32,702 nucleotides of DNA from a candidate division WOR-3 bacterium (GTDB lineage: Bacteria; Hydrothermota; Tepidihabitantia; Tepidihabitantales; CAIPLT01): NCBI GenBank assembly GCA_965649215.1, contig CBFGJZ010000018.1, positions 1 to 32,702 on the forward strand, in the 5' to 3' direction. Under the pieces are notes generated by a model. It had not been told where the DNA came from, made no database searches, and worked only from the letters and a program-made list of their open reading frames with translations. Below, piece after piece: positions 8,218-29,817 of the stretch (positions are counted from its first letter, which is position 1; each line of letters begins with the position of its first letter). Position numbers and translations under genes: made by a program.

Positions 8218-8724
8218 TTAAATAAATCTTTCAAATCTTTCTTGACTTGCTTTACAAATTGGGCAAATTAAAGGAGGCTGATTACGCGCACATAAATAAC
8301 CACATACTTTACAACGCCAGATTGGTAAGGAAAATTCTAAATTTTTACTTATTTGAGATGTCTTATCTTTTAATTCTTCAAATTGTAATTTTCTTCGTTC
8401 TGGGATGGGACTTATTTTTTTTAGTCCTTTTAAAATTTCTTTTGAAACATATAAACCACAATAACAAGTTCCAAATTCTATTAGATCTTGATCGCGATAA
8501 TCACATGGACAAATGATATCTAAATCATATTTTTTTTCCCCTTGCGCAATTCGACAAGGACATGCTTGATAACCATAGCGTCTTTCATTAATAAGGAGAC
8601 CTTTAATTAATTCTTTTGTAAATTCGATATCGGGATTTAAATAATAACCGCTGTTTTTCGCTGTATCGCAAAGTTCTTTATATAATTTTTCTATATCTTC
8701 ATTATTAATGATAATATCAGTCAT
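8218..8724 (-). CDS. Ferredoxin:thioredoxin reductase catalytic-subunit homolog with C-terminal rubredoxin domain (FDR-like)
   Basis: CPC...CPC...CYC FTR motifs, then WRCKVCG...CPIC. Confidence 0.9.
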   Translation of the reverse strand: MTDIIINNEDIEKLYKELCDTAKNSGYYLNPDIEFTKELIKGLLINERRYGYQACPCRIAQGEKKYDLDIICPCDYRDQDLIEFGTCYCGLYVSKEILKGLKKISPIPERRKLQFEELKDKTSQISKNLEFSLPIWRCKVCGYLCARNQPPLICPICKASQERFERFI

Positions 8725-8998
8725 GAATAAGTTTATCTAATTTTTCTTGGTCATATCCTAAGATACAATCTTTGTTATTTATTACGATAGTTGGGAAAGA
8801 TAAACGCTCATTCCATTTTTTTAATTCACGCAAGGTTTGTTCACGTTCTTCTCCGCTTAATAAATCTACATCCACATAATCATAGGCAATTTGATGATCA
8901 GAAAAGAATTTTTTAGTTTTTTTACACCAAACACAAGTGCTTAAAGCAAAAATAAATATTTTGCCTTTATCTTTACCTGGCACATGAATAATTGCCAT
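8717..8998 (-). CDS. Glutaredoxin-like protein (CVWC, methanoredoxin/NrdH-like)
   Basis: STCVWCKK active site and SFPTIV cis-Pro motif; overlaps the FTR gene by 8 nt. Confidence 0.9.
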   Translation of the reverse strand: MAIIHVPGKDKGKIFIFALSTCVWCKKTKKFFSDHQIAYDYVDVDLLSGEEREQTLRELKKWNERLSFPTIVINNKDCILGYDQEKLDKLIHD

Positions 8999-9012
8999 TA
9001 TTCAACTTAAAT

Positions 9013-9477
9013 TTATTCTTGTTCTAACATTACTAAGTCAACGGGTTTTGGGCCTTTAACCGAAAGAAAAGCTGCGTGTTCATCTCCGATATTAGCAAAA
9101 GAATGAGGTATATCCATTTTACCTTCAATAACATCTCCGGCGGTTGCGATAATCTCTTTATTACCAACTTTGAATTTGATTTTTCCCTTCAGTACAAAAA
9201 ATATTTCATCGGTTGTCGGATGTTTATGAAGTGGTACCCTTTTACCAACCGGTAAATTATATATGTAAGGTGCTAATGATGAGTAATCACCAAAAAATGG
9301 ATTAATTTCAACTTCACTACCATAACTGACTTTTTGAGCATAATGAATATGAATTTGCTCAAAATCTTGAGCTACTTCCACAAATTTATCCTTGTTAGCT
9401 CCACAATTTGGACATTTTTCAGGTGGTTCCATACCTTCATGGATATATCCACAAACACTACAACGCCATTTTTTCAT
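9013..9477 (-). CDS. Rubredoxin-cupin fusion protein
   Basis: N-terminal WRCSVCGY...CPNCG short rubredoxin; C-terminal cupin with HKHPTTDE...G...H metal motif; SD AGAGGAG upstream. Confidence 0.85.
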
Positions 9478-9494
9478 AAATATCTCCTCTCTAG

Positions 9495-9989
9495 TTATGG
9501 TCCTACATGCATTAATGGAAATTCAATATTAAAACCTTCAAATTTTTCTGCATTTTCTTTTTCAATTTCAATAAGACGGTAATGTCCCAATTCCATTTTT
9601 GCAATATACAGTAACATATTTTTAATTTGTGGTTTATTGTTATAACGCTCAGCAATTCCTAAATAAAAATCATGGGCATTTATTTCGGCGTTCATCGCAT
9701 CTTGTAAGATTTGACTGATCGGAATATTTTCAGTGGCTAAATTAATTTGTGGTAACGGAACTGGATTTTCTTTTGGTAACTTAATAGTCTTGTTTGGAAA
9801 ATCTTGTTCGTAAATTTTTTTAAATATTTGATAGTGTTTTGATTCTTCGTTAGCTAAGAAAATAAAACGTTCTTTTAAAAGATAATTATCAACTTTACTA
9901 GCTAATTTTGAATATATTGATTTACTTTCATCTTCAGCCTTTAAGGCCGTCAAAATTAAATCTTCTAACTTATAAATCTTTAAATCCAT
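9495..9989 (-). CDS. Ferritin-like/rubrerythrin-family diiron protein
   Basis: Two E...ExxH pairs (AEDES...EESKH; AEINA...MELGH); no rubredoxin domain. Confidence 0.85.
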
Positions 9990-10062
9990 AATATTCCTTT
10001 CTTTTTTAATTTCTATTATTAGACTTTATTTTATTTCGCAAGATGCTACTCTAAGTAGCAAA

Positions 10063-10209
10063 TTATGATTTTTTTCTTCGCATCATTTCACCGCAACAAA
10101 TAAAAAGAATATCACGATTAGGACATTCATCAGTTGTTTTCACTTGTAATTCAACACCACAATTTTTACAATATAAATTATAGGAATACTTAACTTTTTT
10201 GTGCTTCAT
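10063..10209 (-). CDS. Small (48 aa) desulforedoxin-like Cys-rich protein, absent from the ORF track
   Basis: Manual translation MKHKKVKYSYNLYCKNCGVELQVKTTDECPNRDILFICCGEMMRRKKS; strong SD AAGGAGG just upstream of the ATG; CxxCG...CCGxxM motif. Confidence 0.8.
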   Translation of the reverse strand: MKHKKVKYSYNLYCKNCGVELQVKTTDECPNRDILFICCGEMMRRKKS

Positions 10210-10284
10210 TTGCCCTCCTTAACTATTGAAAATAATTTATTAATAAATATGATCTTAATTTAATTATAAGTTGCATACTAACTA

Positions 10285-10314
10285 ATATTAAACAAATATT
10301 TTATAAAAAGTCAA
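10285..10314 (-). promoter_or_regulatory. Possible sigma70 promoter for the 10209-to-7469 gene run
   Basis: Minus strand TTGACT-18 nt-TAATAT in a very AT-rich intergenic region. Confidence 0.35.
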
Positions 10315-10398
10315 GGAAATCAATATTTTATTACACTTTGATTTATAATAAGTTACACAAAAATACTATAATTTTATATTTTTTAATATGAAGCATTA

Positions 10399-12813
10399 TT
10401 AATTTAAATTTATTCTTCGTAATTGTAATGAATTAGTAGTAACATTTAAAGAACTTAATGCCATGGCTATTTCTGCGATAAGTGGATGCATAAAGCCGAC
10501 GATAGCCATTGGTATCGCAATGATATTGTAGAAAAATGCCCAGAAGAGATTTTGTTTAATTTTTTGAAATGTTGCTTGTGAAATTTTAATAGCAGTTACA
10601 ATGTCAAGTAAATTACCAGAAATTAATATTACATCAGATGCTTCAATTGCAATATCAGTCCCACTACCAATTGCAATTCCAACATCAGCTTGAGTTAATG
10701 CTGGTGCATCATTAATACCATCTCCGACCATTGCTACTAAACCATAACTTTTTTGTAATTGTTTAATAATTTTTTGCTTATCTTGAGGTAAAACATTAGC
10801 AATAGTATGTTCAATTCCAATTTTTTGACTTATAGCTAAGGCTGTCTTTTCATCATCACCTGTTAGCATCACTAAATGTAACCCTCGCTGTTTTAACTTA
10901 TTTATTGCTAATTGAGAATCATCTTTTAATTTATCAGCAATAGCGAGTAAACCAACTAAATTATTATTAAATGCGATTAGAATCACTGTTTTTGCTTCAC
11001 TTTCTAATTTGTATATTTCACTTATCAATACTTGATAACTAACATTATTTTCGTCAAATAATAATTTGTTCCCACAAATAACTTTAACATTATCAACTAT
11101 ACCAATAATTCCTTTACCCGAGATTGACTGAAAATTGCTTGGTGCTTTTATGGAAATATTTTTATTTTTTGCAGTTGTGATAATTGCGTTAGCTAAAGGA
11201 TGTTCGGAACCGAATTCAAGGCTCGCAGCATATTGTAATAACTCTTTTTCTGATACACCATTAACTACTATTATATCTGTTACTTCTGTTTTTCCTTTAG
11301 TTAGTGTTCCGGTTTTATCAAAAATTATTGCTTTGACATCCTTTAAAGATTGAATTGCTTCACCTGAGCGAAAGAGAATGCCTCGCTCAGCTGCTATTCC
11401 AGAACCAACCATTAAGGCAGTTGGCGTTGCTAAACCTAAAGCACAAGGACACGCAATTACCAATACTGAAATACTGGCAAAAATTGCTAAAGAAATCGGT
11501 GATAAAGTTGGATTTAACCACGGTAAAAAATGACTAATCCATGTTAAACCACCTCTCAAATAAGGAGTTAGGAATAACCATCCGAAAAATGTAAGAATTG
11601 CGATTAAGATAATAATTGGGACAAAACGATTAGTAATTTTGTCGGCAAACTCTTGTATCGGAACTTTTGTACTTTGACATTCTTCAACTAATTTAATAAT
11701 CTGTGCTAAAAAAGTATCTTTTCCAACTTTTGTAGCTTTAATTTGTAATAAACCCTGTAAATTAATAGTAGCGCCAATCACAATATCTCCTTTTTGTTTG
11801 CGTACAGGGATAGGTTCACCAGTTATCATTGATTCATCAATATTCGATACACCACTTATAATCTCTCCATCAGTTGGTATTTTTTCACCTGGGTGGACCA
11901 ACATAATATCTCCAACTTTAAGTTGTTCGATTGGAATATTTTTTTTCTTACCATCAACAATAATTGTCACTGATTTCGCACCAAGTTCTATTAATCTTTT
12001 GATTGCTTGTGATGTTTTTCCTTTTGCTTTTGTTTCAATATAACGACCAGTCAGATGAAATGCCATAATCATACCTGCAATTCCAGCATAATTTTCTATC
12101 GGTACATTAATAATTCGTAAAAATCCTGTTATAAGCGCACTGATCGTACCTAATCCAATTAGGACATCCATCGATGCCGCTTTATTTCGAATTGAATTTA
12201 TGCCGGCTTTTATAGTATTAAAACCTGGAATAAAAACAGCTGCAACGCCAAAAATAAGCATTATAAGATCCATTTGTTGAATATGAATTTTTAATACCAT
12301 ATGCATAAACATGAGGACGATAAGGGGTGCTGTTAAAAACCATATTAACATTAATCTTACTTTAGCTTTTTGCCATTCTTGAGTCATCTTGTCAATGCCT
12401 TGAGAATGTTCTTCGCGGATTTCATATCCAACTTCTCTAATACGTCTTTTAATATCCTCAAGACTGGTAATTTTTTTGTCAAATCTAATAGTTGCTTTTT
12501 CTGATGCAAAATTTATATTTACACTCGCAACACCAGGTAAATTACCAACTGCCTTTTCAATTGTTCGGACACAACTTGCGCAAGTCATTCCAATAATTGA
12601 AATTGTGATAGTTTCGGTTTTTCCAATCTTTTTAGCTGACATATTAGCTGGGATAAAATAGTCTACTTTTTTAAGATATTTTTCTGGATCGGCTTTAAAC
12701 TTTTCCAAACATGATAAATTGCAAAAATGATATATTATGCCTTTATATTCAAGTTCACCTGCTTGTTCTTCTTTAGTTATTTCCATCCCGCAAACGGGAT
12801 CAATAAAAGTCAT
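10399..12813 (-). CDS. copA: Cu(I)-translocating P1B-1 ATPase with N-terminal YHS and HMA domains
   Basis: DPVCGM...FCNLSC (YHS), GMTCASC (HMA), TGE, CPCALG, DKTGT, SEHP, GDGIND, plus YN and MxxSS Cu(I) ligands. Confidence 0.93.
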
Positions 12814-12821
12814 ATAAAAAT

Positions 12822-12872
12822 AAAACCTCTTATCTTCATCTTATCATAGAAGATAGAAAGATAAGAGGTTTT
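12822..12872 (-). terminator. Long hairpin between dfx and copA: terminator/attenuator whose 3' arm contains the copA RBS
   Basis: Perfect 15-bp inverted repeat AAAACCTCTTATCTT (12822-12836) / AAGATAAGAGGTTTT (12858-12872) with extra inner pairing. On the minus strand it ends ...AAGAGGTTTTATTTTTAT-ATG(copA). Confidence 0.7.
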
Positions 12873-12904
12873 TAGTTATCTTAATTCTCTATAGTTATTG
12901 TAAT

Positions 12905-13279
12905 TTATGCTTTCCAAAGACCGTGGATATTACAATATTCGCGTGCAGTAATATTCTCTGCTTGAATACAAAATTCTGCTTCGGGTGCATCGTTTGGTTT
13001 TAAGAATTTCCGATAGGATTTACCATCCGCAATTATTTGTATCCATTCAATGTAATGTTTTTCTTCCATTGGATGGGGTACCGAGCCGATTTTTACTTTT
13101 ACGCCTGATGCTGTCTTTTCAATAACTGGGACGTGTTTTTCTTGCCCAACATCAGATGTTTTCTCAACTAATAATTCCATTTGAACGCCGCAACAGACTA
13201 ATGTTCCTTGACCAGTATGGAGCACTTCCACAATATTACCACATATTTTACATTTGTAAATTTGTGATAGATTAGTCAT
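12905..13279 (-). CDS. dfx: Desulfoferrodoxin (2Fe superoxide reductase)
   Basis: N-terminal CKICG...CCG desulforedoxin domain; EKHVP, HPM..H and CNIHG active-site motifs. Confidence 0.97.
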
Positions 13280-13294
13280 ATTATTTATCTTAAT

Positions 13295-13447
13295 TTATTT
13301 CTTTTTTGGTTTCATTACTTGTCCACAACAAGCAATTGCGCATTCTTCACATTCACAAGGATTTTTTATTGTTACTTCTAACCCACAAATGTCGCAAATG
13401 TATGAAACACCCCTTTTATGGGCTTTTTTTGTAGTTTTCTTTTTCAT
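13295..13447 (-). CDS. Small (50 aa) seven-Cys desulforedoxin/metallothionein-like protein, absent from the ORF track
   Basis: Manual translation MKKKTTKKAHKRGVSYICDICGLEVTIKNPCECEECAIACCGQVMKPKKK; SD AGAGGAG lies within the end of the upstream gene; start is 1 nt after the upstream stop. Confidence 0.85.
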   Translation of the reverse strand: MKKKTTKKAHKRGVSYICDICGLEVTIKNPCECEECAIACCGQVMKPKKK

Positions 13448-13448
13448 T

Positions 13449-13868
13449 TTATAGCTCCTCTAATAAACCCGTAAAGGTATCATGATGTTCTTCTTCATCA
13501 GCCAAGATACCTTCGAACATCTTTTTGGTTACTACATCACCTTGTTTTTCTGCTAATGAAATAATTTCCTTATACAATTTGATTGCTCCTTCTTCATCTT
13601 TAGTATCTGTCATAAGCATTTCTTTAAGACTTTTGCCAACAAAAATAGGTTCAGGTTTTGTAGTTGGAATTCCACCTAAATAAACTAATCGCTCGGCTAT
13701 CGCTTCAGCGTGTTTCATCTCCGTAATTCCAATTTTCTTAAGCTCATCCTTAACCGCAAATGCTTTAACACCTTTCCATTGTACATGTTGCCACATATAT
13801 TGAATTGCTACTTGTAATTCTCGTGCAATTGCTTTATTTAACATTTCCATCAGTTCTTTGCTTGCCAT
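13449..13868 (-). CDS. Short bacterioferritin-like protein
   Basis: E...QY...EMKHA...ERL..LGGxP...EEGA...EEEH ferroxidase pattern; 139 aa, lacking the C-terminal helix of classical Bfr. Confidence 0.85.
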   Translation of the reverse strand: MASKELMEMLNKAIARELQVAIQYMWQHVQWKGVKAFAVKDELKKIGITEMKHAEAIAERLVYLGGIPTTKPEPIFVGKSLKEMLMTDTKDEEGAIKLYKEIISLAEKQGDVVTKKMFEGILADEEEHHDTFTGLLEEL

Positions 13869-13898
13869 ATCGGCTCCTTTCTTTTGGTAATTTGTAAT

Positions 13899-13927
13899 AT
13901 TCTAACTTATAATTATTATCTTGTCAA
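13899..13927 (-). promoter_or_regulatory. Sigma70 promoter with a PerR/Fur-type box in the spacer
   Basis: Minus strand TTGACA-17 nt-TAGAAT; spacer holds TTATAATTATTATCT (13907-13921), 2 mismatches from the PerR consensus TTATAATNATTATAA. Confidence 0.65.
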
Positions 13928-13935
13928 TCATTAAT

Positions 13936-14607
13936 TTATCTTGATAGTTTTTTATGACATAACCACCAATCCAGACATTCAAATTCACCTGCTTTGGCTT
14001 TAGTTAATCGTTCCTGTGCGGTTTTAACATCTTTAGCAGGTGGAATAATCACATGGTCGTTCATAATTTCATTATTAGGCCAATTTGCGGGCATGGCAAC
14101 ACCATATTTATCTGATACCTGCATTGCTTCAACTGCGCGTAAAATTTCGTCTATATTTCGGCCGAGCTCTTGTGGATAATATAAAATAATTCTAATTTTA
14201 CCTTTGTCATCAACTACAAATACGGCTCGTACTGTATTTGTCCCTTTGCCAGGATGAATCAAACCAAGAGTTTCCGCGACTTTACCAGTATCCGCAATAA
14301 TAGGAAATTCAATTTCTATACCGAGTTTTTCTTTAATCCATTCTTCCCATTTTATATGAGAAAAAACCTGGTCAACACTTAAACCGATAAGTTCGCAGTT
14401 TAATGCTTTAAATTTATTATATCTTTTCTGAAACGCAACAAACTCAGTAGTACATACCGGAGTAAAATCGGCCGGATGGCTAAATAGAACGAACCACTTA
14501 CCCGCAAATGCTTTAGGCAATTCTATCTCACCATGGGTTGTTTGTACTTTCATTTCTGGGAAAGTATCTCCCAAAAGTGGCATACTTCTTTTTTCTATAT
14601 TGTCCAT
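13936..14607 (-). CDS. Peroxiredoxin (Prx6/TDXH type)
   Basis: [15 protein letters not shown] peroxidatic motif, [14 protein letters not shown] and C-terminal CLDWWLC. Confidence 0.95.
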
Positions 14608-14692
14608 AATCTCTCCTCTCTTAATGTTAATAATAACTTCATAATAATTAGACCTTATGATTTAGAGAAGGATGCGAGGTTATTATTTAAAA

Positions 14693-14707
14693 TTCAATCA
14701 GATTGAA
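14693..14707. promoter_or_regulatory. Perfect 7-1-7 palindrome upstream of the peroxiredoxin gene, possible operator
   Basis: TTCAATC-A-GATTGAA in the intergenic region. Confidence 0.35.
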
Positions 14708-14717
14708 GGGATAATTT

Positions 14718-15020
14718 TTATTTTTTCTTTTTAATCATCCTTTCCACTTCTTCAGCACCTTTTTGATAATGTTTTACTTCATCTGGTGCCAGTTCATATA
14801 AAAGTCTTAGGAATTCACCTGCGTGGACTCGTTCTTCATCGGCAATTTCAATCAGCACTTTTTGGGCTAATTTATTATCGATTGACTCAGCAAGTTGCAT
14901 ATAGAGTTGTATTGCTTCATATTCAGCTGCGACCATAAATCGAATTGCACGAATTAATTCCTCGTGCGTCAGTTTGCGGTCTTTTTTCAATCCTGTAAAT
15001 GGCGTTCCAAAATCTGGCAT
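14718..15020 (-). CDS. Half-ferritin, encapsulated-ferritin (Flp/EncFtn)-like protein
   Basis: 100 aa; RAIR...AEYEAIQLY.QLA...IADEERVHAGEF pattern; SD AAGGAG. Confidence 0.8.
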   Translation of the reverse strand: MPDFGTPFTGLKKDRKLTHEELIRAIRFMVAAEYEAIQLYMQLAESIDNKLAQKVLIEIADEERVHAGEFLRLLYELAPDEVKHYQKGAEEVERMIKKKK

Positions 15021-15929: not shown

Positions 15930-17294
15930 ATGAAATATCACTTTGCTGTACATATATTCCGTCGTGATTTACGACTATTTGATAATACTTCTCTGATTTT
16001 CGCACTTAAAAATTCTAAGCAAGTTATTCCTTGTTTTATTTTAGATCCTGACCAAATAGAAAATAATCCTTATCGTTCGGATCGTGCTTTACAATTTATG
16101 ATTGAGTCTTTATTTGATTTAAATCGCCAATTAAAAAATAAAAATGCTCAATTATATTTATTTTATGGAAAACCAGATCATATTGTAGAACAACTAATTA
16201 AAACCCGACCAATTGATTTGGTTTCGATCAATCGTGATTATACACCGTTTAGTATAAAACGAGATAATTCTATTGCGTCGGTATGTAGTAAATACAGAGT
16301 TACATTTTTAAGTCATCATGATTTATTATTACACGAACCAGAACAAATCTTAAAACATAATTCTCAACCATATACTATTTTTACACATTTCTTTAATAAA
16401 GCAAAACAAATTTCGGTTTCAAAACCAATAAATAATCCATATCAAAATTATTACAAGCAAAATATTAGTTTTGCGAAAAATTTTGAATTTTTAAGTCAAA
16501 TAATATCAAAACCAAGACACAATCTTTATTTCAAAGGTGGACGAAGTGAAGCATTAAAATTACTTGCCAATATCAAAAACTTAAAAAATTATCATTTTGA
16601 ACGAAATTTTCCCGCATTAGATAAAACATCTCATTTGTCCGCGCACAATAAATTTGGTACTGTTTCAATTCGAGAAGTATATCATACAATTTTAAGATAT
16701 TTTAATTCTAATCATGAAGTAATCAGAGAATTGTATTGGCGAGATTTCTTTTCCTATCTCCTCTATCATTTTCCGAACCTTTTAGAAAATGCCGCTAAAA
16801 GAAAATATGACCAAATTAAATGGAATTATGATAAAAATTTATTTAAGAAGTGGTGCGAAGGACAAACTGGATTTCCAATAGTTGATGCTGGTATGCGACA
16901 GTTAAATCAGATTGGTTATATACCTAATCGCATTCGTTTAATTACTGCTTCTTTTTTAGTAAAAGATTTATTTATTGATTGGCGATGGGGTGAAAAATAT
17001 TTCGCTCAAAAATTAGTAGATTATGATCCTGCAATAAATAATGGCAATTGGCAATGGGTTGCATCAGTTGGTTATGATGCTCAACCTTATTTTCGTATTT
17101 TCAATCCATGGCTGCAACAAAAGAAATATGACCCTGATTGTAAGTATATAAAAAAATGGTTAGCAGAATTACAAACTCTAACTCCCAAACAAATCCATCA
17201 TCTAGAAACACTAAAAGTAAAAAATTATCCACGCCCAATTATTAATCACGAAAAAGCAGTGCGTCGAGCGATTGAGCGATTTAAAAAAATTTGA
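15930..17294 (+). CDS. phr: Deoxyribodipyrimidine (CPD) photolyase
   Basis: FRRDLRLxDN, TSxLS...FG, ELYWRDF, WCEGxTGFPIVDAGMRQL, DWR, DYD...NNGNWQW, RIFNP; Trp electron-transfer triad present. Confidence 0.93.
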   Translation: MKYHFAVHIFRRDLRLFDNTSLIFALKNSKQVIPCFILDPDQIENNPYRSDRALQFMIESLFDLNRQLKNKNAQLYLFYGKPDHIVEQLIKTRPIDLVSINRDYTPFSIKRDNSIASVCSKYRVTFLSHHDLLLHEPEQILKHNSQPYTIFTHFFNKAKQISVSKPINNPYQNYYKQNISFAKNFEFLSQIISKPRHNLYFKGGRSEALKLLANIKNLKNYHFERNFPALDKTSHLSAHNKFGTVSIREVYHTILRYFNSNHEVIRELYWRDFFSYLLYHFPNLLENAAKRKYDQIKWNYDKNLFKKWCEGQTGFPIVDAGMRQLNQIGYIPNRIRLITASFLVKDLFIDWRWGEKYFAQKLVDYDPAINNGNWQWVASVGYDAQPYFRIFNPWLQQKKYDPDCKYIKKWLAELQTLTPKQIHHLETLKVKNYPRPIINHEKAVRRAIERFKKI

Positions 17295-19204: not shown

Positions 19205-20317
19205 CTATATTTTCATCTCATACATTCGATATTTTTTATAGATACGACCACCGATTTCCATATCAAATTTATTGATTAAATCGTTATCTTCAAGATTCCA
19301 ACCCAATTCACACCATTTATAACCACGTTTGATAGCATTTACGACTGTTTCATAGAAAAGAAGCGTAATAATCCCACTTTGTCGAAATTCTCGTTTGACC
19401 CCACCAATCATTGCTCTTACCCCATCAATTTTTCTACGGTAGTAGAGAAATTTTAATATTCCGATCAAACCTAATTTGCCGTTCAACTTTTTTAATACTT
19501 GATTGATATCCGGCACAGTCACTGTAATACCAACCGGTTTACCATCAATTTCTGCAAAAACTACTAATTCGGGGTCGACAAATTGTTTGATTTTCTTAGC
19601 AGTCAAATCAATCTCTTTATCAGTCATCGGAACAAAACCCCAATTTTTTTCCCAAGCTGAATTATAAACATCTTTAATATATTGAAGATCCCGTTTAAAA
19701 TTTTTCATATCTAAAGTTCGAATGACCGCACGGGTCTTTTTACGAACGACTTCCGCCATACGCTGAATTCGTTCAGGAATCCCGTCTTTTGCTTCTTTAA
19801 GTAATGCGTACATATCTTTAGCTTTGATAAAACCATATTGTTCGGCTAAGGATAAATAATAAGGTGGTGTGTAAGGCATCATTACGGTTGGTGGTTTATC
19901 AAAACCTTCTAACAAAAAAGCACATTCGTCATTCTGACTTGGATTTACCGGCCCACGCATTACCTCCATATTTTTATTTAGTAACCATTCCTTTACTCTA
20001 TCCCATAAGATTTTAGCAATTTCAAAATCATCGATGCATTCAAAAAAACCAAAAAATCCAACTTTATCATTATGAAAACTATTATGATTATGATCTACGA
20101 TTGCGGCAACACGTCCAACGCATTGATTATTTTTACGTACAATAAATAATTCTCGTTCGGCATGTTCCCAAAAGGGATTTTTCTTGACATCTAAAATCTC
20201 TTTTACTTCCTGCTTAAGTGGCGGAATCCAATATTGATTACCTTTGTAAATTAACCATGGTAAATTAATAAAATCATTTAGATCTCGTTTGCTTTTTACA
20301 ACATCAATTTCTAACAT
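19205..20317 (-). CDS. GNAT-fold acyltransferase, YghO/bacterial ceramide synthase-like
   Basis: WIPPL, GRVAAI, GFFGFFEC, MRGPVNP..NDEC.FL..GFD.PP..MMPY.P.YY, W.KNWGFVPM, ELGW.LEDN family motifs. Confidence 0.7.
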   Translation of the reverse strand: MLEIDVVKSKRDLNDFINLPWLIYKGNQYWIPPLKQEVKEILDVKKNPFWEHAERELFIVRKNNQCVGRVAAIVDHNHNSFHNDKVGFFGFFECIDDFEIAKILWDRVKEWLLNKNMEVMRGPVNPSQNDECAFLLEGFDKPPTVMMPYTPPYYLSLAEQYGFIKAKDMYALLKEAKDGIPERIQRMAEVVRKKTRAVIRTLDMKNFKRDLQYIKDVYNSAWEKNWGFVPMTDKEIDLTAKKIKQFVDPELVVFAEIDGKPVGITVTVPDINQVLKKLNGKLGLIGILKFLYYRRKIDGVRAMIGGVKREFRQSGIITLLFYETVVNAIKRGYKWCELGWNLEDNDLINKFDMEIGGRIYKKYRMYEMKI

Positions 20318-20409: not shown

Positions 20410-21645
20410 TTAAGTGTTTATATCGTGATGATGGTGGTCATAGTCAGTACCAGGACCCGCATCCTGTCTTTTACCGGTTTTTAGAAAATGAGCATATAGT
20501 GGAGAAAGATCTCTTAGTTTAGTTACAATTGGTGGTAAAACTTCAAGCAAATAATTAATATCATCACTTGTATTAAATTTTGATAAAGTCATTGTAATTG
20601 AACCTTGTCCAATCGCCGCATCAACACCAATAGCAGATAAGACATGTGACATTTTTAATTGCTTTGAAGTACAAGCAGAACCACTACTAACATAAATTCC
20701 TTTTTCATCTAATAATAATAGAATTCCTTCTCCTTCAATAAATTCAATGGAAAAATTTATATTGTTAGGTAATCGTTGGGTGGGATGACCATTTAAGTAA
20801 ATATATTCTATTAGTTTGGGTAGTTCCTTCATGATACGATCTCGTAATTTAATTATCTTGTTATTATTTTCAATCATTTCTTTTTTAGCTATTTCTGCCG
20901 CTTTACCCATACCAACAATTGCAGGCACATTTTCTAAACCAGCACGACGATTAAATTCTTGGATACCACCGTCAATTTGGGGAACGATTTTAACACCTTT
21001 TCTAATATAAAGAGCAGCTGCACCTTTCGGACCATAAAATTGAGAACCAGCCAAACTTAATAAATCAACGTCTAACTCTTTTACATCAACTGGAATTATA
21101 CCAACAGTGGCAATGGCATCGGTATGAAAAAGAATTTTATTTTCGTGTGCAATTTTAACTAATTCAGTTAAGTTTTGAATTGTACCAATTTCGGGATTAG
21201 CATGTTGGATAGAAATTAAGATGGTATCGTTACGGATTATGTTTTTTAAATCGGTTGGTGATACAACACCGTATTTATCAACGGGCAAATAACTAATCTC
21301 AAAACCATCTTTTTGTAATCTTTTTACTGCATTAAGTATTGAGATATGTTCAATAGCACTAATGATAATATGTTTCCCTTTTGTTTGATAAGCTTGAGCA
21401 ATACCTTTAATTGCAAGATTATTGGCTTCTGAACCGCATGATGTAAAAATTATTTCTTCGCTTTGAGCATTTATTAGTTGAGCTAATTGATTTCTAGCAT
21501 TTTCAATTGCTTGGTAGGATTTATATCCAAATGAATGAAGACTTTGGGGATTGCCATAAAAATCTTTAAGAAAAGGTAGCATAGCTTCATATACTCGAGC
21601 ATCTAGTTTCGTGCTCGAATGATTGTCTAAATAGACTTGCTGCAT
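20410..21645 (-). CDS. iscS: IscS/NifS-family cysteine desulfurase homolog lacking the PLP Schiff-base lysine
   Basis: YGNP.S.H, FTSCGSEANN, EH, SSGSACTS (catalytic Cys present), but SLAGSQFYGPKG replaces the canonical SxHKxYGPKG; His-rich tail. Confidence 0.85.
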   Translation of the reverse strand: MQQVYLDNHSSTKLDARVYEAMLPFLKDFYGNPQSLHSFGYKSYQAIENARNQLAQLINAQSEEIIFTSCGSEANNLAIKGIAQAYQTKGKHIIISAIEHISILNAVKRLQKDGFEISYLPVDKYGVVSPTDLKNIIRNDTILISIQHANPEIGTIQNLTELVKIAHENKILFHTDAIATVGIIPVDVKELDVDLLSLAGSQFYGPKGAAALYIRKGVKIVPQIDGGIQEFNRRAGLENVPAIVGMGKAAEIAKKEMIENNNKIIKLRDRIMKELPKLIEYIYLNGHPTQRLPNNINFSIEFIEGEGILLLLDEKGIYVSSGSACTSKQLKMSHVLSAIGVDAAIGQGSITMTLSKFNTSDDINYLLEVLPPIVTKLRDLSPLYAHFLKTGKRQDAGPGTDYDHHHHDINT

Positions 21646-21718: not shown

Positions 21719-22900
21719 TTATAAAAGATTTAGTTTCTTGTGTTTTTCAAGGATCTTATCAGCAAGTATCTCTAATTTCTCAAAATCTGTTTGTTTGGGA
21801 TAACCTTTAGCAATGACAGGTTCTAAAAGTTCTACTTTGAGATTTGGTATCATCTCAATAATCTTTTCGCTCAATTTGCTTGCCCATCCATAAGAACCAA
21901 TAATTGATGCGAATTTTGTCTTGGGTCGTAATGCATTTGCTAAATAAGCAGCATAAACTGCTTGCGGATGTGGTCCGGTTAAAACCGTTGAAGTCCCGAT
22001 CACAATTGTGGCAGCATCTACCAATGCCATTGCTAATTCGCCAATATCAGTTCGGCTCAGATTAAATGGTAGCACAGTAATATTTCGTTTGATTAAAGCA
22101 TTAATAAAATAATCAATCATTGTTTGAACACTACCATGCATAGAAACATAAGGCAAAACGACTTCATTCTTGACATTATCTGATGTCCAGTCTTGATAAG
22201 CATTAATAATAAATTCGGGTTTATTATGGAGTGGGCCATGACTGGGTGCAATAATTTCTATCTGGTAATTCTTGATTCTTTCTAAATGGGTCTTGATATT
22301 CGTGCGAAATGGCATCATAATTTCGGCATAATATCGTTTTGCTGATTCATAATAACGTCTTTCATCACTGACAAATAAATCACTGGTTGCAAAATGTGAA
22401 CCTAAAAAATCGCAAGTAAAAAGAATCTTATCTTCTTTGAGATAAGTAAGGAAAGTTTCGGGCCAATGGACCCATGGTGCCATTATAAACTCAAGTGTCT
22501 TATCACCTAATGATAAAGTATCGTTGTCTTGAATAACAATAAATCGGTCATCGGGAATTAATAATAATTCTTTAAGTAAATCTTTGCATTTGGCATTAGT
22601 GACGACTTTTGCTTCAACAAAATGTTTGAGAATGGTCGGTATAACACCAGAATGGTCCTGTTCTCCATGATGGGCAATCACATAATCAATGGAGGAAATA
22701 CCAAGTTCTTTAAGATTATTTATTAATTCTTGTTCTTTAGTTGGGTCAACCGTATCAATCAAAACAGTCTTTTCTGAGCCTTTAATGACATAAGCATTAT
22801 AACTCGTACCATAGGGTAACGGAATCAACTCATCAAATAAACGACGATCAAAGTCAATGGCTCCAACAAAATAGATATTTGGTTTAATAACTCTATTCAT
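21719..22900 (-). CDS. fprA: Flavodiiron protein (class A FprA, O2/NO reductase)
   Basis: GTSYNAY, HxExDH (HGEQDH), HWPET, D..G.H, PSHG, and a C-terminal flavodoxin domain with GSYGW. Confidence 0.95.
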   Translation of the reverse strand: MNRVIKPNIYFVGAIDFDRRLFDELIPLPYGTSYNAYVIKGSEKTVLIDTVDPTKEQELINNLKELGISSIDYVIAHHGEQDHSGVIPTILKHFVEAKVVTNAKCKDLLKELLLIPDDRFIVIQDNDTLSLGDKTLEFIMAPWVHWPETFLTYLKEDKILFTCDFLGSHFATSDLFVSDERRYYESAKRYYAEIMMPFRTNIKTHLERIKNYQIEIIAPSHGPLHNKPEFIINAYQDWTSDNVKNEVVLPYVSMHGSVQTMIDYFINALIKRNITVLPFNLSRTDIGELAMALVDAATIVIGTSTVLTGPHPQAVYAAYLANALRPKTKFASIIGSYGWASKLSEKIIEMIPNLKVELLEPVIAKGYPKQTDFEKLEILADKILEKHKKLNLL

Positions 22901-22906
22901 ATTTAT

Positions 22907-24217
22907 TTATCTTTTTAAAATTTCAGCTAAATCTTTTTCTGGTTCTGAAATTAAGCGTAAATCGAACTTATCAACTAATATTTTAAGAATATCTTCGTTT
23001 ACCCAAGCTGGAAGAATTGGTCCGACATACATTTTCTTAATCCCTAACGATAATAAGCTCCAGAGAATCGCAACTGCTTTCTGTTCCATCCAAGTTAATA
23101 CTAAAGTTAATGGCAGATCATTAATTGGCATACGAAAAGCATCAGACAAGGCTTGAGCAATTTCAATCGCCACAATTGTATCATTACATTGACCGATATC
23201 AATTAATCTTGGGATGCCTTCAATCTCACCTAACTCTAAATCATTAATCCGATATTTACCACAAGCCAGGGTAAGCACAATCGTATCTTTAGGTAGGATT
23301 TCAACAAATTTCCGATAATATTCTCCCCTCTTACCGGGTGTATCGCAACCACCCACAACAAAGAAATGTTTTATTTTGCCACTCATCACTAAACTGGCAA
23401 TTTTCGGAGCTAAGGACATTATGACTGATTTAGAAAAACCCGTCGTCAAGATAACATCTCCTGCTTTTTCTTCTAAATCAGGCAGTGATTTGGCTTTGTC
23501 AATTAAAGGTGAAAAATCAAATCCTTGAATATGCTTAATTCCGCTGAGACCAGTAACTCCCATGGTGAAGATACGGTCTTTGTATTCATCGGTTGGAATT
23601 AAGACACAGTTTGATGTTGCCAAAATTGCACCTTTGAATTCAGCAAATAATTTTTTCTGATCATACCAGGCTTTTCCCAAATTACCGACTAAGTGTTGAT
23701 ACTTCTTTAATTCGGGATAGCCATGCGCTGGGAGCATTTCTGAATGGGTATAGACGTTAATACCTGTTCCTTCGGTTTGTTGTAAAAGTTCAGCTAATGC
23801 TTTAAGGCTATGACCCGTAACTAAAATTCCTTTGCCTTTTTTAGTGCCGGTTTGTACTTTTGTTGGTACTGGTTCGCCAAAACTTTTTATATGAATCTGT
23901 TTTAAAAGCGACATTGCTTTAATATTCATCTGGCCCGCTTTGAGTCCGAGTTCAAGGAATCGATTTGCATCAAAATTAACATTAGTGAGAGTTGAGAAGA
24001 AACCACTTTCTAAAAATGCGTCAATCTCAGAATCTGAGACACCTAATTCGCGAGCGTGATAGAGATAGGCACAGATGCCTTTGATTGCATATAATAGATT
24101 ATCTTGCAATCGAGCAATCGTTGGTTCTTTGCCACAAACGCCACGGATTGTACAACCACTTCCCTTTGCAGTTTGGGAACATTGATAGCAAAACATCTTT
24201 AATGCTTCATCTGCCAT
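22907..24217 (-). CDS. hcp: Hybrid cluster protein (hydroxylamine/NO reductase), short class III type
   Basis: MFCYQCSQT....C....[41 protein letters not shown]; 436 aa. Confidence 0.95.
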
Positions 24218-24247: not shown

Positions 24248-24952
24248 CTAAACTTTCTTAAATTGTGATTTATCGGCACCGCAGACAGGACAAACCCAAT
24301 CATCAGGTAATGATTCAAATGGTGTTCCTGGTTTAATACCCGAGTCTGGGTCTCCTTGTGCAGGGTCATAAATATAATCACAAACTGTGCAACGATATTT
24401 TTCCATTTTTATCTCCTCTTTTTGTTTTTTTATTTCACCAACTTTTTCGGATGCAATATAAGTTGGTGCGGTTTTTGGCGATTTACCTTTTTTAATTAAA
24501 TGATAATAAGCATAAGTCATTGGTGAGTTATCACTGAGTAATTGCGCATCAATAATTTTACCGATGAACATGGTATGGGTACCACAATCAAGATTATTTA
24601 CCAATTCGCATTCTAAATATCCTAAAGTGAAATCAAGCACAATTGGCGCTTTGGTAATACCGATTTTATAATTGGTATCTTTAAATTTATCAATATTACG
24701 ACCCGACTTAAACCCAAATTTTCCAATAAAAGGCATATCTGCTTGTTCAGTTAAAATTGAGACCGTAAACACTTTACTTGCTGAAATGTATTCATGAGTC
24801 AGATTCTGTTTATTGATACAAACTGCAATCTGAGGTGGTTCGGCGGTAACTTGCATTACGGTATTCGCAATTTGGCCGTTTAATTTGTTATCTTTAATAG
24901 AACTAATAATAAACATTCCGTAACTAATTTTATGTAAGGTAGTTAAGTCCAT
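24248..24952 (-). CDS. hrb: High-molecular-weight rubredoxin (flavin reductase-rubredoxin fusion)
   Basis: ISYG...NGQIANTV.Q...FGFKSGR...GTHT flavin-reductase domain plus C-terminal CTVC...WVCPVC rubredoxin. Confidence 0.9.
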
Positions 24953-27122: not shown

Positions 27123-28636
27123 TGTCTTTTCGCAATAATCCGGCCTTCAATTTTATAATCAATGGGTGAATGTTTCTGAATATATTGGGCTAAAGCATCA
27201 CGAATTAAGAAATAAGTATCTTCAACATCCTTACCATCTTTAAAGATACCATACGCACCACCACCAGCAGCCAAGAAATTATTGGTAGCGACAGTATATT
27301 CTTTATCAAAATCAATTGGTTTGTCATTAATTTCAACTGAGATTAATTTTTTATTTGGTGGGGCTTTGGGGTCATAAACCATCTTTAATCCGGAAACTTG
27401 AAAGATGGCATGATAACCAATTACCGATACTTCTAACATCTGCCAGACTTGAGCACCGGTCATTGTCATGGTGACAATCGTATTGCCAAAATTCTCAACT
27501 TTATACAAATCTCGATAGGTAATATTACCTGCTGGCAGGTTCGCACGAATTCCCCCAGAATTTGTTACTGCGATATCTGTTTTGGTATATTCACGCATCG
27601 CATCAGTAATAAGATTGCCAATTGGTGATTCTTCAAAACCAGCTCGCGTTAATTCGCGTTTACAAACTCCTAATACGTTATCAAATCCTTGTTCAACAGT
27701 TGCCTGCCAGTGTTTTAGTTGTTCAAGATATTGTTGGTCTAAACTAATCTCTTCGCCAAATAGATTAATTAATTCACCTTCATAATCACGAATTCGTTTC
27801 GTCTCTTTATCAATCTTCAGTTTAAGCAAGCCAACCGCAGTTAATTTTGAATAAGCTTGTGAGATAATTGTATGATAGCGGGGCATCTCTTTTGGTGGTT
27901 GCACACCCGTGTGGCTATGGCCACCGATAATAACATCAATACCAGGCACTGAATCAGCCAACCGTTGGTCATGACTAAAGCCCGCATGGGTTAAAGCAAT
28001 AATAATGTCCACATTATGTTTTTTTAACTCTTTAATACTATTTGCCGCACCGGTATAATGCTTTAAGACTGATAGACCTGCCATGTGTTCAGGACTGACC
28101 ATACCGCTCAGATAATGGGTAGTGATACCAAATAACCCAATTTTTAAGCCATCTCTTTCTAAAATTAGATAGGGTGTAAAATATTCAGGTATTGAATCAG
28201 TACCGCTTTTAACAAGATTAGCACATAAAACCGGTGCATTTAACATTCTGATTAATGATTTAAGGGTATCTAAGCCAAAGGTAAAATCATGGTTACCAAT
28301 TGTTGCGGCGTCAACTTTGATATGATTTAAAAATTCAATTACTGCTTTGCCATACGAAAAATCACCAATCGGACTACCTGAGAACCAATCGCCAATATCA
28401 AATACCAAGACAGGTATATTTTTCTGAGCGGCTTCAGCTCTAATTTCGTTGATAATCGTAATTGCCGCAGGCGCATTCCCAATTGGTGGGGGAAAATCGG
28501 GATTCATCCAGAAAGCATCACTTGGAGTTAACGCACCATGAATATCATTAACATGAACAAGCCAAACTTCATCAGGTATTGCATAACCAAAACCAATAAA
28601 TAAAACAGATAATAAAATTAGACTAAATCTTTTCAC
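27119..28636 (-). CDS. Periplasmic 5'-nucleotidase / metallophosphatase (UshA-like)
   Basis: Signal peptide; NDIHG, DIGD, GNHDF, TH, GGHSH calcineurin-like motifs; C-terminal NSGGIRA domain; GTG start overlaps the upstream TGA. Confidence 0.92.
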   Translation of the reverse strand: MKRFSLILLSVLFIGFGYAIPDEVWLVHVNDIHGALTPSDAFWMNPDFPPPIGNAPAAITIINEIRAEAAQKNIPVLVFDIGDWFSGSPIGDFSYGKAVIEFLNHIKVDAATIGNHDFTFGLDTLKSLIRMLNAPVLCANLVKSGTDSIPEYFTPYLILERDGLKIGLFGITTHYLSGMVSPEHMAGLSVLKHYTGAANSIKELKKHNVDIIIALTHAGFSHDQRLADSVPGIDVIIGGHSHTGVQPPKEMPRYHTIISQAYSKLTAVGLLKLKIDKETKRIRDYEGELINLFGEEISLDQQYLEQLKHWQATVEQGFDNVLGVCKRELTRAGFEESPIGNLITDAMREYTKTDIAVTNSGGIRANLPAGNITYRDLYKVENFGNTIVTMTMTGAQVWQMLEVSVIGYHAIFQVSGLKMVYDPKAPPNKKLISVEINDKPIDFDKEYTVATNNFLAAGGGAYGIFKDGKDVEDTYFLIRDALAQYIQKHSPIDYKIEGRIIAKRQ

Positions 28637-29817
28637 AATATCCTATCAATTGGTAATCTCAGACCACCAATAACCATTGCAGTATTTTGATATATTTTCA
28701 TCGTATTGTCATTAGCCGAAGTTAAATTTTCTGCGTAAATAATTCGTCGACCGATTTCAGCACCGATATCAACTTGAATAATTCCAATCTCAAAACCCCA
28801 ACCTACTGAAACTGCCCCCAAATGCACAATCGGTTCAATAAATGATGGTTGGAGCCGAAAGCCGTATCGCAACGCAACCGATGTTAGTAAAATATGTTCA
28901 ATACCAAAGCCAACTTCCCAACTGCTTTGATAAGTGCTATCTAAAGTCTTCCAATTTGAGTATTGGGTTTGGACACCCAGTTTTGTTGGTATTTCACCAC
29001 TGGCTAAATAAGCCACATTCAATTTATAAATTGCAGGATATTTAACGGTAATATCCGGATTAATGAACTTATTAACTTTTATCGGACTTTGATACCCAAG
29101 ATTAATCAAGAGGCGCTCAAATGGCTTATAACTAAAGTCCAATGTTAAACCAAGCCCATTAAGATTACCAATACTATCCGCATTTACCACATTACTGTTA
29201 AGCATTGAATCATGATAATGGTATGTGCGTTTGCCATCATAATAATTAAGACCAATACTAACTCCAATCATATCCTTAAATTGTTTACCAACCATTATTG
29301 CAGTTTCACATAATTGTCCTAAAACTTTTAACTCTGTTTCACCAATTTTCGTATAAAAATCGTCCCGAAATTCCTGATAGTAATAGTAATTATAACTAAT
29401 AATCGGTTTTCTGCTGACACTGATATTTAACAAATCAAAAGGCATTAGAAAATAAAAATTAGCGAGATTACCTCGGGCTAATGTATTATCACTGATTGCC
29501 ACTTCACCAATGGTGTTATCAAACTGGTCATAGACTTGGACGGTTCTTCTTTCGGATAAAATATCAACATAATACGCAGCAGTTAAATCGGGTTTTGCTT
29601 TTGCTTTAGTAAGTGGGTTTGCCCAAGATACAATAGGTTTAAAAAGTTCTACACCCGCCGTACTAAGAGAGTACGCATCAGAAAAATTTAATCGCCGACC
29701 ATAATACCAATCAATCGGCATTGTGCCTAACCCAAAAGAGAGCGAAGTGAGAAAAAAACATATAGGCAAAAAAAACCATAATATCTTTTTTATCACAAAT
29801 AAAATATTAATCTTCAT
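28633..29817 (-). CDS. Putative outer-membrane beta-barrel protein (FadL/OmpP1-like)
   Basis: Signal-like N-terminus, amphipathic strands rich in Gly and aromatics, ...GFGIE...ALRYGF...VGWGF pattern. Confidence 0.55.
   Translation of the reverse strand: MKINILFVIKKILWFFLPICFFLTSLSFGLGTMPIDWYYGRRLNFSDAYSLSTAGVELFKPIVSWANPLTKAKAKPDLTAAYYVDILSERRTVQVYDQFDNTIGEVAISDNTLARGNLANFYFLMPFDLLNISVSRKPIISYNYYYYQEFRDDFYTKIGETELKVLGQLCETAIMVGKQFKDMIGVSIGLNYYDGKRTYHYHDSMLNSNVVNADSIGNLNGLGLTLDFSYKPFERLLINLGYQSPIKVNKFINPDITVKYPAIYKLNVAYLASGEIPTKLGVQTQYSNWKTLDSTYQSSWEVGFGIEHILLTSVALRYGFRLQPSFIEPIVHLGAVSVGWGFEIGIIQVDIGAEIGRRIIYAENLTSANDNTMKIYQNTAMVIGGLRLPIDRIL

Follow-up and report, generated by a model that had tools for sequence, protein, structure and literature searches.

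We find that the gene at positions 20410-21645 of a 32,702-nucleotide stretch of contig DNA (the whole stretch analysed, hereafter the window) encodes a real, conserved and misannotated protein, an IscS-like member of a clade routinely labelled 'cysteine desulfurase' in which the PLP Schiff-base lysine is missing. Judging from its residues, this lysine-less IscS has almost certainly lost desulfurase activity, and it is quite probably a non-catalytic partner of the scaffold protein IscU. The source genome (G000) comprises 1.64 Mb and is 95% complete; its phylum is likely WOR-3, going by the labels of the closest named homologues (candidate division WOR-3).

The open reading frame runs from 21645 to 20410 on the minus strand, is intact over 411 amino acids and lies opposite a plus strand rich in stops. 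Its product matches Pfam Aminotran_5, the class V aminotransferase fold, and among NCBIfam models those for NifS/IscS score best, all below cut-off (TIGR03402 (FeS_nifS), 505 versus 530.75; TIGR02006, 408 versus 643; NF002806, 295 versus 304). An AlphaFold2 monomer model built from a 56-sequence alignment has a pLDDT of 90.7, with low confidence in the Cys loop (residues 324-330) and the tail (397-411), and Foldseek places it close to NFS1, E. coli IscS and A. fulgidus IscS (TM 0.88-0.93), with an rmsd of 1.2-1.3 Å to the last of these. The gene and the residues on which the argument turns are as follows.

20410..21645, minus strand: lysine-less IscS-like gene with the type I cysteine desulfurase fold (open reading frame, Pfam Aminotran_5, NCBIfam FeS_nifS, AlphaFold2 and Foldseek)
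21346..21348, minus strand: His100, the PLP-stacking His of EH, retained (120/120 best homologues)
21109..21120, minus strand: Asp176, retained (120/120 best homologues), and Ala179 replacing the PLP-contacting Gln (Gln in 7/120 best homologues and 124/128 lysine-bearing representatives)
21040..21045, minus strand: Ser201-Gln202 replacing the His-Lys that holds the PLP Schiff-base lysine (His 0/120, Lys 0/120 best homologues)
20935..20937, minus strand: Leu237 replacing the Thr of GTEN, specific to this copy and a few others (Thr in 115/120 best homologues)
20671..20688, minus strand: SSGSAC mobile loop with Cys325 (Cys in 120/120 best homologues; 324-330 of low model confidence)
20593..20595, minus strand: Thr351 replacing the Arg that binds the substrate carboxylate (Arg in 0/120 best homologues versus 127/128 lysine-bearing representatives)
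20422..20481, minus strand: C-terminal tail KTGxRxxAGPGTDY, then a His/acid-rich end, clade-specific (113/120 best homologues versus 0/150 distant representatives)

These counts derive from a protein search in which 7998 candidates were scored and the best 120 used (64-75% identity to the window protein), and from a wider comparison with 150 more distant cluster representatives, 128 of them lysine-bearing. A preliminary description of this DNA had read the codon CAA at 21040-21042 as a Gln within GSQFYGPKG without giving a strand; the reading is correct, and the residue is Gln202 on the minus strand. The other pocket changes that it listed (DNHSST at residue 7, HTDAIAT at 174), the intact SSGSAC (320-325) and the DHHHHD tail (403) are likewise where it placed them, while the losses of the substrate-binding Arg (Thr351), of the His before the Lys (Ser201) and of the GTEN Thr (Leu237) had escaped it. 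It had also asked whether a Lys-to-Gln change defines a clade: Lys is lost throughout a supported clade, but the residue that replaces it varies, column 202 of the best 120 homologues holding Gln in 82, Thr in 26, Glu in four, Ser in three, Ala in two and Ile, Leu or Asn in one each. The 128 lysine-bearing representatives, by comparison, have the Arg in 127, the Gln in 124 and the pre-Lys His in 112.

Desulfurases have an active site of conserved Lys, Arg, His and Cys, with the Arg binding the substrate carboxylate (excerpts of PMC8918507), and E. coli IscS loses activity in the variants K206A and Q183E (excerpts of PMC9978102). Because the active-site Lys, Arg, Gln and His are gone clade-wide and these E. 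coli mutants are inactive, we strongly infer the loss of desulfurase activity stated at the outset. What the protein shares with an active desulfurase is the stacking His, the pyridine-nitrogen Asp and the loop Cys; the Schiff-base Lys, the Arg and a family-level score are missing. The earlier proposal of a non-catalytic IscS like that of A. fulgidus agrees with these clade-wide losses around an invariant loop Cys, and in the PDB the C-terminal domain matches A. fulgidus IscS2 best. Asn150 is present in 119 of the 120 best homologues, Gln34, Gln147 and Pro151 are further conserved pocket-region residues new to the clade, and this copy has Ala199. Cys70 (21436-21438), beside the former phosphate-binding turn, occurs in 109/120 best homologues versus 13/128 lysine-bearing representatives, and column 179 is Cys in 44/120; an extra thiol close to the emptied pocket might be relevant. 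Against the clade consensus this copy differs at 11 of 186 conserved columns, Thr237Leu included (median 5; as many in 8 of the 120 homologues), which may reflect relaxed selection.

In trees built with the diagnostic columns removed, the tailed proteins come out as a single clade (33 of 213 rows, FastTree support 0.996; 8 of 46 rows, SH-aLRT 96), itself part of a broader group of bacterial lysine-less proteins (SH-aLRT 97) that includes a single lysine-bearing row. Five further lysine-less rows, L002 from Bathyarchaeia and four that group with it, stand apart from the bacterial group in the free trees. These hinted at two independent Lys losses, in bacteria and in archaea, which the AU test did not uphold: a tree constrained to unite the bacterial and archaeal lysine-less groups, which also took in two lysine-bearing rows placed within or next to the bacterial group and left out the A. 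fulgidus sequence, absent from all IscS trees, was better by 21 log-likelihood units (p-AU 0.81). These sequences are compatible with a common origin of the bacterial and archaeal lysine-less IscS. Several distant representatives (P0142, P0148, P0164, P0167, P0190, P0200 and P0207) appear by eye to be IscS fusions with IscU-like, TusA-like or Rrf2-like domains.

We then considered the company that the clade keeps. A DNA pattern for the tail matched at least 120 metagenomic stretches, and the flanks of 80 were examined with locus profiles built from the same loci, families being named by Pfam; the loci are not independent samples. Among the matches listed, none of the tailed genes covering column 202 has Lys there. 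The next gene is iscU in 51 of 72 listed loci with at least 600 bases downstream, and 42 listed loci with at least 2 kb downstream contain iscU in 30, a double-zinc-ribbon gene in 25, tusA in 22, fprA and a rubrerythrin-type gene in 17 each, dsrE in 16, fur in nine and hcp in two. The preliminary remark that no iscU is adjacent is thus true of this genome and its kin (none lies within the 32,702 nucleotides), but not of the clade at large. An extra contig scan with unconserved words returned nearly all distant relatives (39-53% identity), which served as controls.

The IscUs that accompany lysine-less IscS are of a distinct type. When 128 distinct IscUs from the examined loci were placed in a tree, all 58 encoded after a lysine-less IscS fell into one clade (FastTree 0.993) and none of the 50 encoded after a lysine-bearing IscS did, with the caveat that these controls are lopsided (39/50 belong to proteobacterial ISC systems and just 2 are from this phylum) and that kin share labels. 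The same division is seen for the signature HCSNLGxxAL (58/58 versus 0/50), and in the genome G187 the two IscU types coexist, each adjoining its matching IscS type. The clade also takes in 20 IscUs with no IscS upstream in the available DNA, that of the source genome among them. A zinc ribbon is adjacent or fused in 66/78 records of this IscU type versus 0/70 others, some loci being counted twice and the profile having been derived from the first of these sets. In relatives the ribbon is either a separate gene of 54-75 amino acids or fused to IscU.

The source genome has a single IscU (one NifU_N match), encoded at 28305-28868 of another contig, C4; it carries a fused C-terminal double zinc ribbon and retains the GNPVCGD, FGCG and HC motifs. 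The surrounding segment (C4:27274-28868; L232:470-2064) consists of two ferritin-like (rubrerythrin-domain) genes followed by this sole iscU-double zinc ribbon gene. Among 25 hand-picked relatives, IscU gives a single match in 23, a lysine-less iscS stands directly before iscU-zinc ribbon in eight, and in four others iscU-zinc ribbon stands alone. In all seven same-family and all six family-f7 genomes iscS is missing from the operon, which reads ferritin-like, ferritin-like, iscU, zinc ribbon, and 12 of these 13 have a close tailed-clade match elsewhere in the genome. Because the iscU operon is without iscS and a tailed copy lies elsewhere, the simplest reading is that the window protein serves the IscU of C4, and the two probably pair in trans. 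One genome, G165, has this IscU type and hrb-hcp-fprA with no lysine-less IscS found; its contig ends 90 bases past fprA, and no iscS start occurs in those 90 bases. A complex prediction of the lysine-less IscS dimer with the IscU core, in which the zinc ribbon was the scored partner, scored 0.00 and is evidence neither way.

Upstream of the gene, as the preliminary description had said, lie Hrb, hcp and FprA-type flavodiiron genes.

21719..22900, minus strand: fprA-type flavodiiron protein, 73 bp upstream of the lysine-less IscS gene, listed as a neighbour (profile matches; 17/42 listed tail-clade loci)
22907..24217, minus strand: hcp, short 436-amino-acid hybrid cluster protein, a neighbour in this lineage only (TIGR01703 above cut-off)
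24248..24952, minus strand: flavin reductase-rubredoxin fusion, Hrb-like (Pfam Flavin_Reduct and Rubredoxin)

The order hrb-hcp-fprA followed by the lysine-less iscS is kept in G141, where dsrE-tusA comes next, and in G181. Among 13 relatives with a close clade match, hcp was found in three (G141, G181 and G195, in the last on the same short contig), while in G110 and G117 the gene is followed by dsrE-tusA and hcp was not found. Promoter and terminator scans were at chance level (29 calls versus 30.7 expected and 5 versus 3.6, respectively), with no terminator called between fprA and the lysine-less iscS on the minus strand; gene spacing is what suggests their co-transcription. The link with hcp is one of local synteny in an O2/NO-stress block, not a clade-wide function. 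In relatives, the short form of Hcp encoded here matches TIGR01703 positions 1-34 and 122-522, and the full-length form occurs in family f2.

Taken together, an IscS fold that keeps Cys325, the loss of the residues of desulfuration and clade genes that usually come immediately ahead of an iscU of the separate type found in this genome argue for a pseudo-desulfurase that would be the dedicated partner of the sole scaffold, the IscU-double-zinc-ribbon protein of C4. Such a protein would dimerise and bind IscU the way IscS does, and its Cys325 would swing into the site on IscU, there to serve transiently as a fourth ligand or as a landing site for sulfur. An old operon of ferritin-like, iscS, iscU and zinc-ribbon genes would in this family stand without its iscS, the tailed copy having split off into the O2/NO-stress operon, so that the two products would act in trans. 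The [2Fe-2S] cluster would then be built on IscU from inorganic sulfide, not cysteine; for sulfide as the sulfur source we see roughly even chances. Two incomplete assemblies, G061 (96% complete) and G139 (94%), have a lysine-less gene as the only IscS-type gene found, their other Aminotran_5 matches having no Cys loop as judged from sequence, and neither SufBD nor TusA was found in them. This absence of a normal desulfurase hints at sulfide. Most relatives retain a normal IscS, and the source genome has one on contig C19 that is 49% identical to the window protein, has His-Lys, Arg and Cys intact and lies among unrelated genes. This enzyme could feed IscU and so counts against the partner reading, as may the 11 departures of this copy if selection has relaxed.

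Against sulfide in particular, the frequent nearby tusA and dsrE suit better a persulfide relay, in which the lysine-less IscS, still a partner of IscU, would take sulfane sulfur on Cys325 from a normal desulfurase, directly or via TusA/DsrE, and pass it to IscU. The sulfur could be cysteine-derived or come from polysulfide or thiosulfate via carriers. Besides the neighbour counts (tusA in 22 and dsrE in 16 of the 42 listed loci), this route agrees with dsrE-tusA directly after the lysine-less gene in G110, G117 and G141, with the normal IscS of the source genome and with five loci in which lysine-bearing and lysine-less genes occur together with iscU (L090, L100, L117, L149 and L158). We nonetheless regard it as rather unlikely: TusA, DsrE_2 and SufBD were not found in the source genome, itself an incomplete assembly, TusA was found in just 18/42 relatives and in 0/4 family-f3 genomes, and a relay starting from a normal desulfurase would find none among the genes recovered from G061 and G139.

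Stress and iron genes predominate among the neighbours of the clade (fprA in 17, rubrerythrin-type genes in 17 and fur in nine of the 42 listed loci), and hrb-hcp-fprA adjoin the gene here, as would suit a cap or regulator that binds IscU under O2/NO stress, shields or stalls the nascent cluster and competes with active IscS, having no role in sulfur entry. The invariant loop Cys speaks against this, as do G061 and G139, where no competitor was found, and we think it unlikely. Slightly more doubtful still is residual or new chemistry, with a B6 vitamer (PMP or PLP) bound non-covalently, or another ligand, in the remodelled pocket. His100 and Asp176 (each 120/120), Asn150 (119) and Thr237 (115) are conserved in the best 120 homologues, the conserved residues Cys70 (109/120), Gln34, Gln147 and Pro151 are new, and the A. 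fulgidus IscS holds PMP (excerpts of PMC8918507). Lys and the substrate Arg are both missing, however, column 202 accepts many different residues (Q, T, V, E, S and others), as a catalytic position would not, and this copy has in addition lost Thr237 and has Ala199.

A dedicated role in maturing or repairing Hcp, which the preliminary description had put forward, finds some footing in the co-directional, tightly spaced genes of the block, in the conservation of their order in G141 and G181 and in the shared short contig of G195; with hcp in only 3/13 close relatives and 2/42 listed metagenomic loci, and present in 17/19 family-f2 genomes whose lysine-less iscS yet adjoins iscU in the loci seen, we consider this role very improbable and do not retain the claim. 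That the gene is a sequencing error or a decaying pseudogene is hardly credible: its departures from consensus are somewhat above the usual (11 versus a median of 5), but the frame is intact at 411 amino acids with tail and Cys retained, Lys is missing in 120/120 best homologues and the same Gln is common to 82 of them, so that a single sequencing error is rejected, as the preliminary description had argued, and one public contig piece (153 nt, depth 2.8), possibly from the source sample itself and distinct from raw reads, crosses the Gln202 codon without a difference.

The lysine-less IscS as an inactive IscU partner has close parallels among known systems. A. fulgidus IscS2 (PDB 4EB5, 4EB7 and 4HVK; D199K variant 4R5F) has the type I fold at 47-49% identity, and in both proteins the PLP Lys and the substrate Arg are replaced (the equivalent of Thr351 is not Arg in 4EB5 either) and the loop Cys is kept. 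The window protein differs in having Gln rather than Asp at the Lys position, in being bacterial, in its length (411 versus 382 amino acids) and AGPGTDY/His-rich tail, and in its setting, with iscU non-adjacent, an IscU on C4 bearing a double zinc ribbon and a normal IscS in the same genome. The primary papers on the inactive A. fulgidus IscS are reportedly Marinoni 2012, Yamanaka 2013 and Pagnier 2015. According to excerpts of PMC8918507, that IscS (Asp199) is inactive and supplies a Cys ligand to the IscU cluster, with sulfide proposed as the sulfur source; excerpts of PMC7585200 and PMC13066941 also treat it. M. acetivorans IscS1 (MA0808), paired with IscU1, likewise has no catalytic Lys and coexists with active IscS paralogues (excerpts of PMC7585200); it is archaeal, is compared here from its description rather than its sequence, and forms inclusion bodies, for which reason it is uncharacterised biochemically in that source. 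The MIS system (MisS-MisU), like IscS and NifS, shares with the present case a desulfurase-like protein and an IscU-like scaffold, the SSGSAC loop and the fold (excerpts of PMC13066941), whereas the window protein has no Lys, Arg, Gln or pre-Lys His and scores below the NifS and IscS NCBIfam cut-offs.

Over its whole length the window protein matches best, among PDB entries, those of a 406-amino-acid 'cysteine desulfurase' (E 8e-127 to 5e-125), 9WEP, 9WER, 9WEW, 9WF8, 9WFB, 9WFE and 9WFY. All are versions of a single protein, changed step by step at pocket positions that also deviate in the window protein (the Gln of HxDAxQ, the Arg and the residue before HxN), and the five entries with the Lys region displayed carry Lys, unlike the window protein. 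The series looks like an engineering study of a related protein, which we take, as a guess, to be a lysine-less IscS2 of Aquifex.

The basic kind of protein is therefore already published, and the locus adds detail to it rather than a new kind: what is new here is a bacterial clade marked by its tail, the IscU-zinc ribbon type that goes with it and the separation of the two genes. In the main texts of open-access articles we found nothing on this tailed clade, on its type of IscU, on IscS-IscU-DsrE-TusA cassettes, on IscU-zinc ribbon fusions or on an Aquifex paralogue. The A. fulgidus oddity has, then, a counterpart in bacteria that is large, tightly conserved and equipped with an IscU type and a zinc-ribbon module of its own. 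The mechanism and sulfur source of lysine-less IscS are named as an open question in excerpts of a 2022 review (PMC8918507), and a small set of proteins (the lysine-less IscS and IscU-zinc ribbon, with or without normal IscS, TusA and DsrE) would allow the question whether anaerobes make IscU clusters straight from sulfide to be put to the test. With one IscU per genome in 23/25 relatives and SufBD found in 3/42, we tentatively entertain the possibility that lysine-less IscS, its co-evolved IscU type and the double zinc ribbon together make up a separate Fe-S assembly machine of anaerobic bacteria that does without cysteine, the main scaffold system of the class and, in some genomes (G061 and G139, as assembled), the sole one, with the tail and zinc ribbon bringing iron or electrons. 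If so, with iscU in an iron-storage operon and the lysine-less iscS in one for O2/NO stress, the cell would be able to tune cluster building or repair by means of a dead enzyme.

Some observations on other genes may be added. Tandem IscS matches occur in four same-family genomes (L233-L236; G117:C17, G141:C32, G110:C50 and G091:C55), and in G110 and G091 both copies are lysine-bearing and lie beside lspA, where the source genome has only one. Directly downstream of the lysine-less iscS in the window, a 370-amino-acid gene (19205-20317) matches nothing in Pfam or NCBIfam at the cut-offs applied and is not a recurring neighbour of the tailed clade; by eye, we take its product to resemble N-acetyltransferase (GNAT/YghO-like) proteins. 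A second same-strand block of redox, iron and metal genes spans 8218-15020, with labels that are part profile-based and part sequence reading: a ferredoxin:thioredoxin reductase-like/rubredoxin fusion, a glutaredoxin, a rubredoxin-cupin fusion, a ferritin-like protein, a heavy-metal P-type ATPase, desulfoferrodoxin-like and bacterioferritin-like proteins, a peroxiredoxin and an EncB-family encapsulin cargo-like protein (14718-15020, above the NCBIfam cut-off). On the plus strand at 15930-17294 lies a gene that reads as DNA photolyase-like from its sequence, an odd companion to anaerobe-type stress genes.
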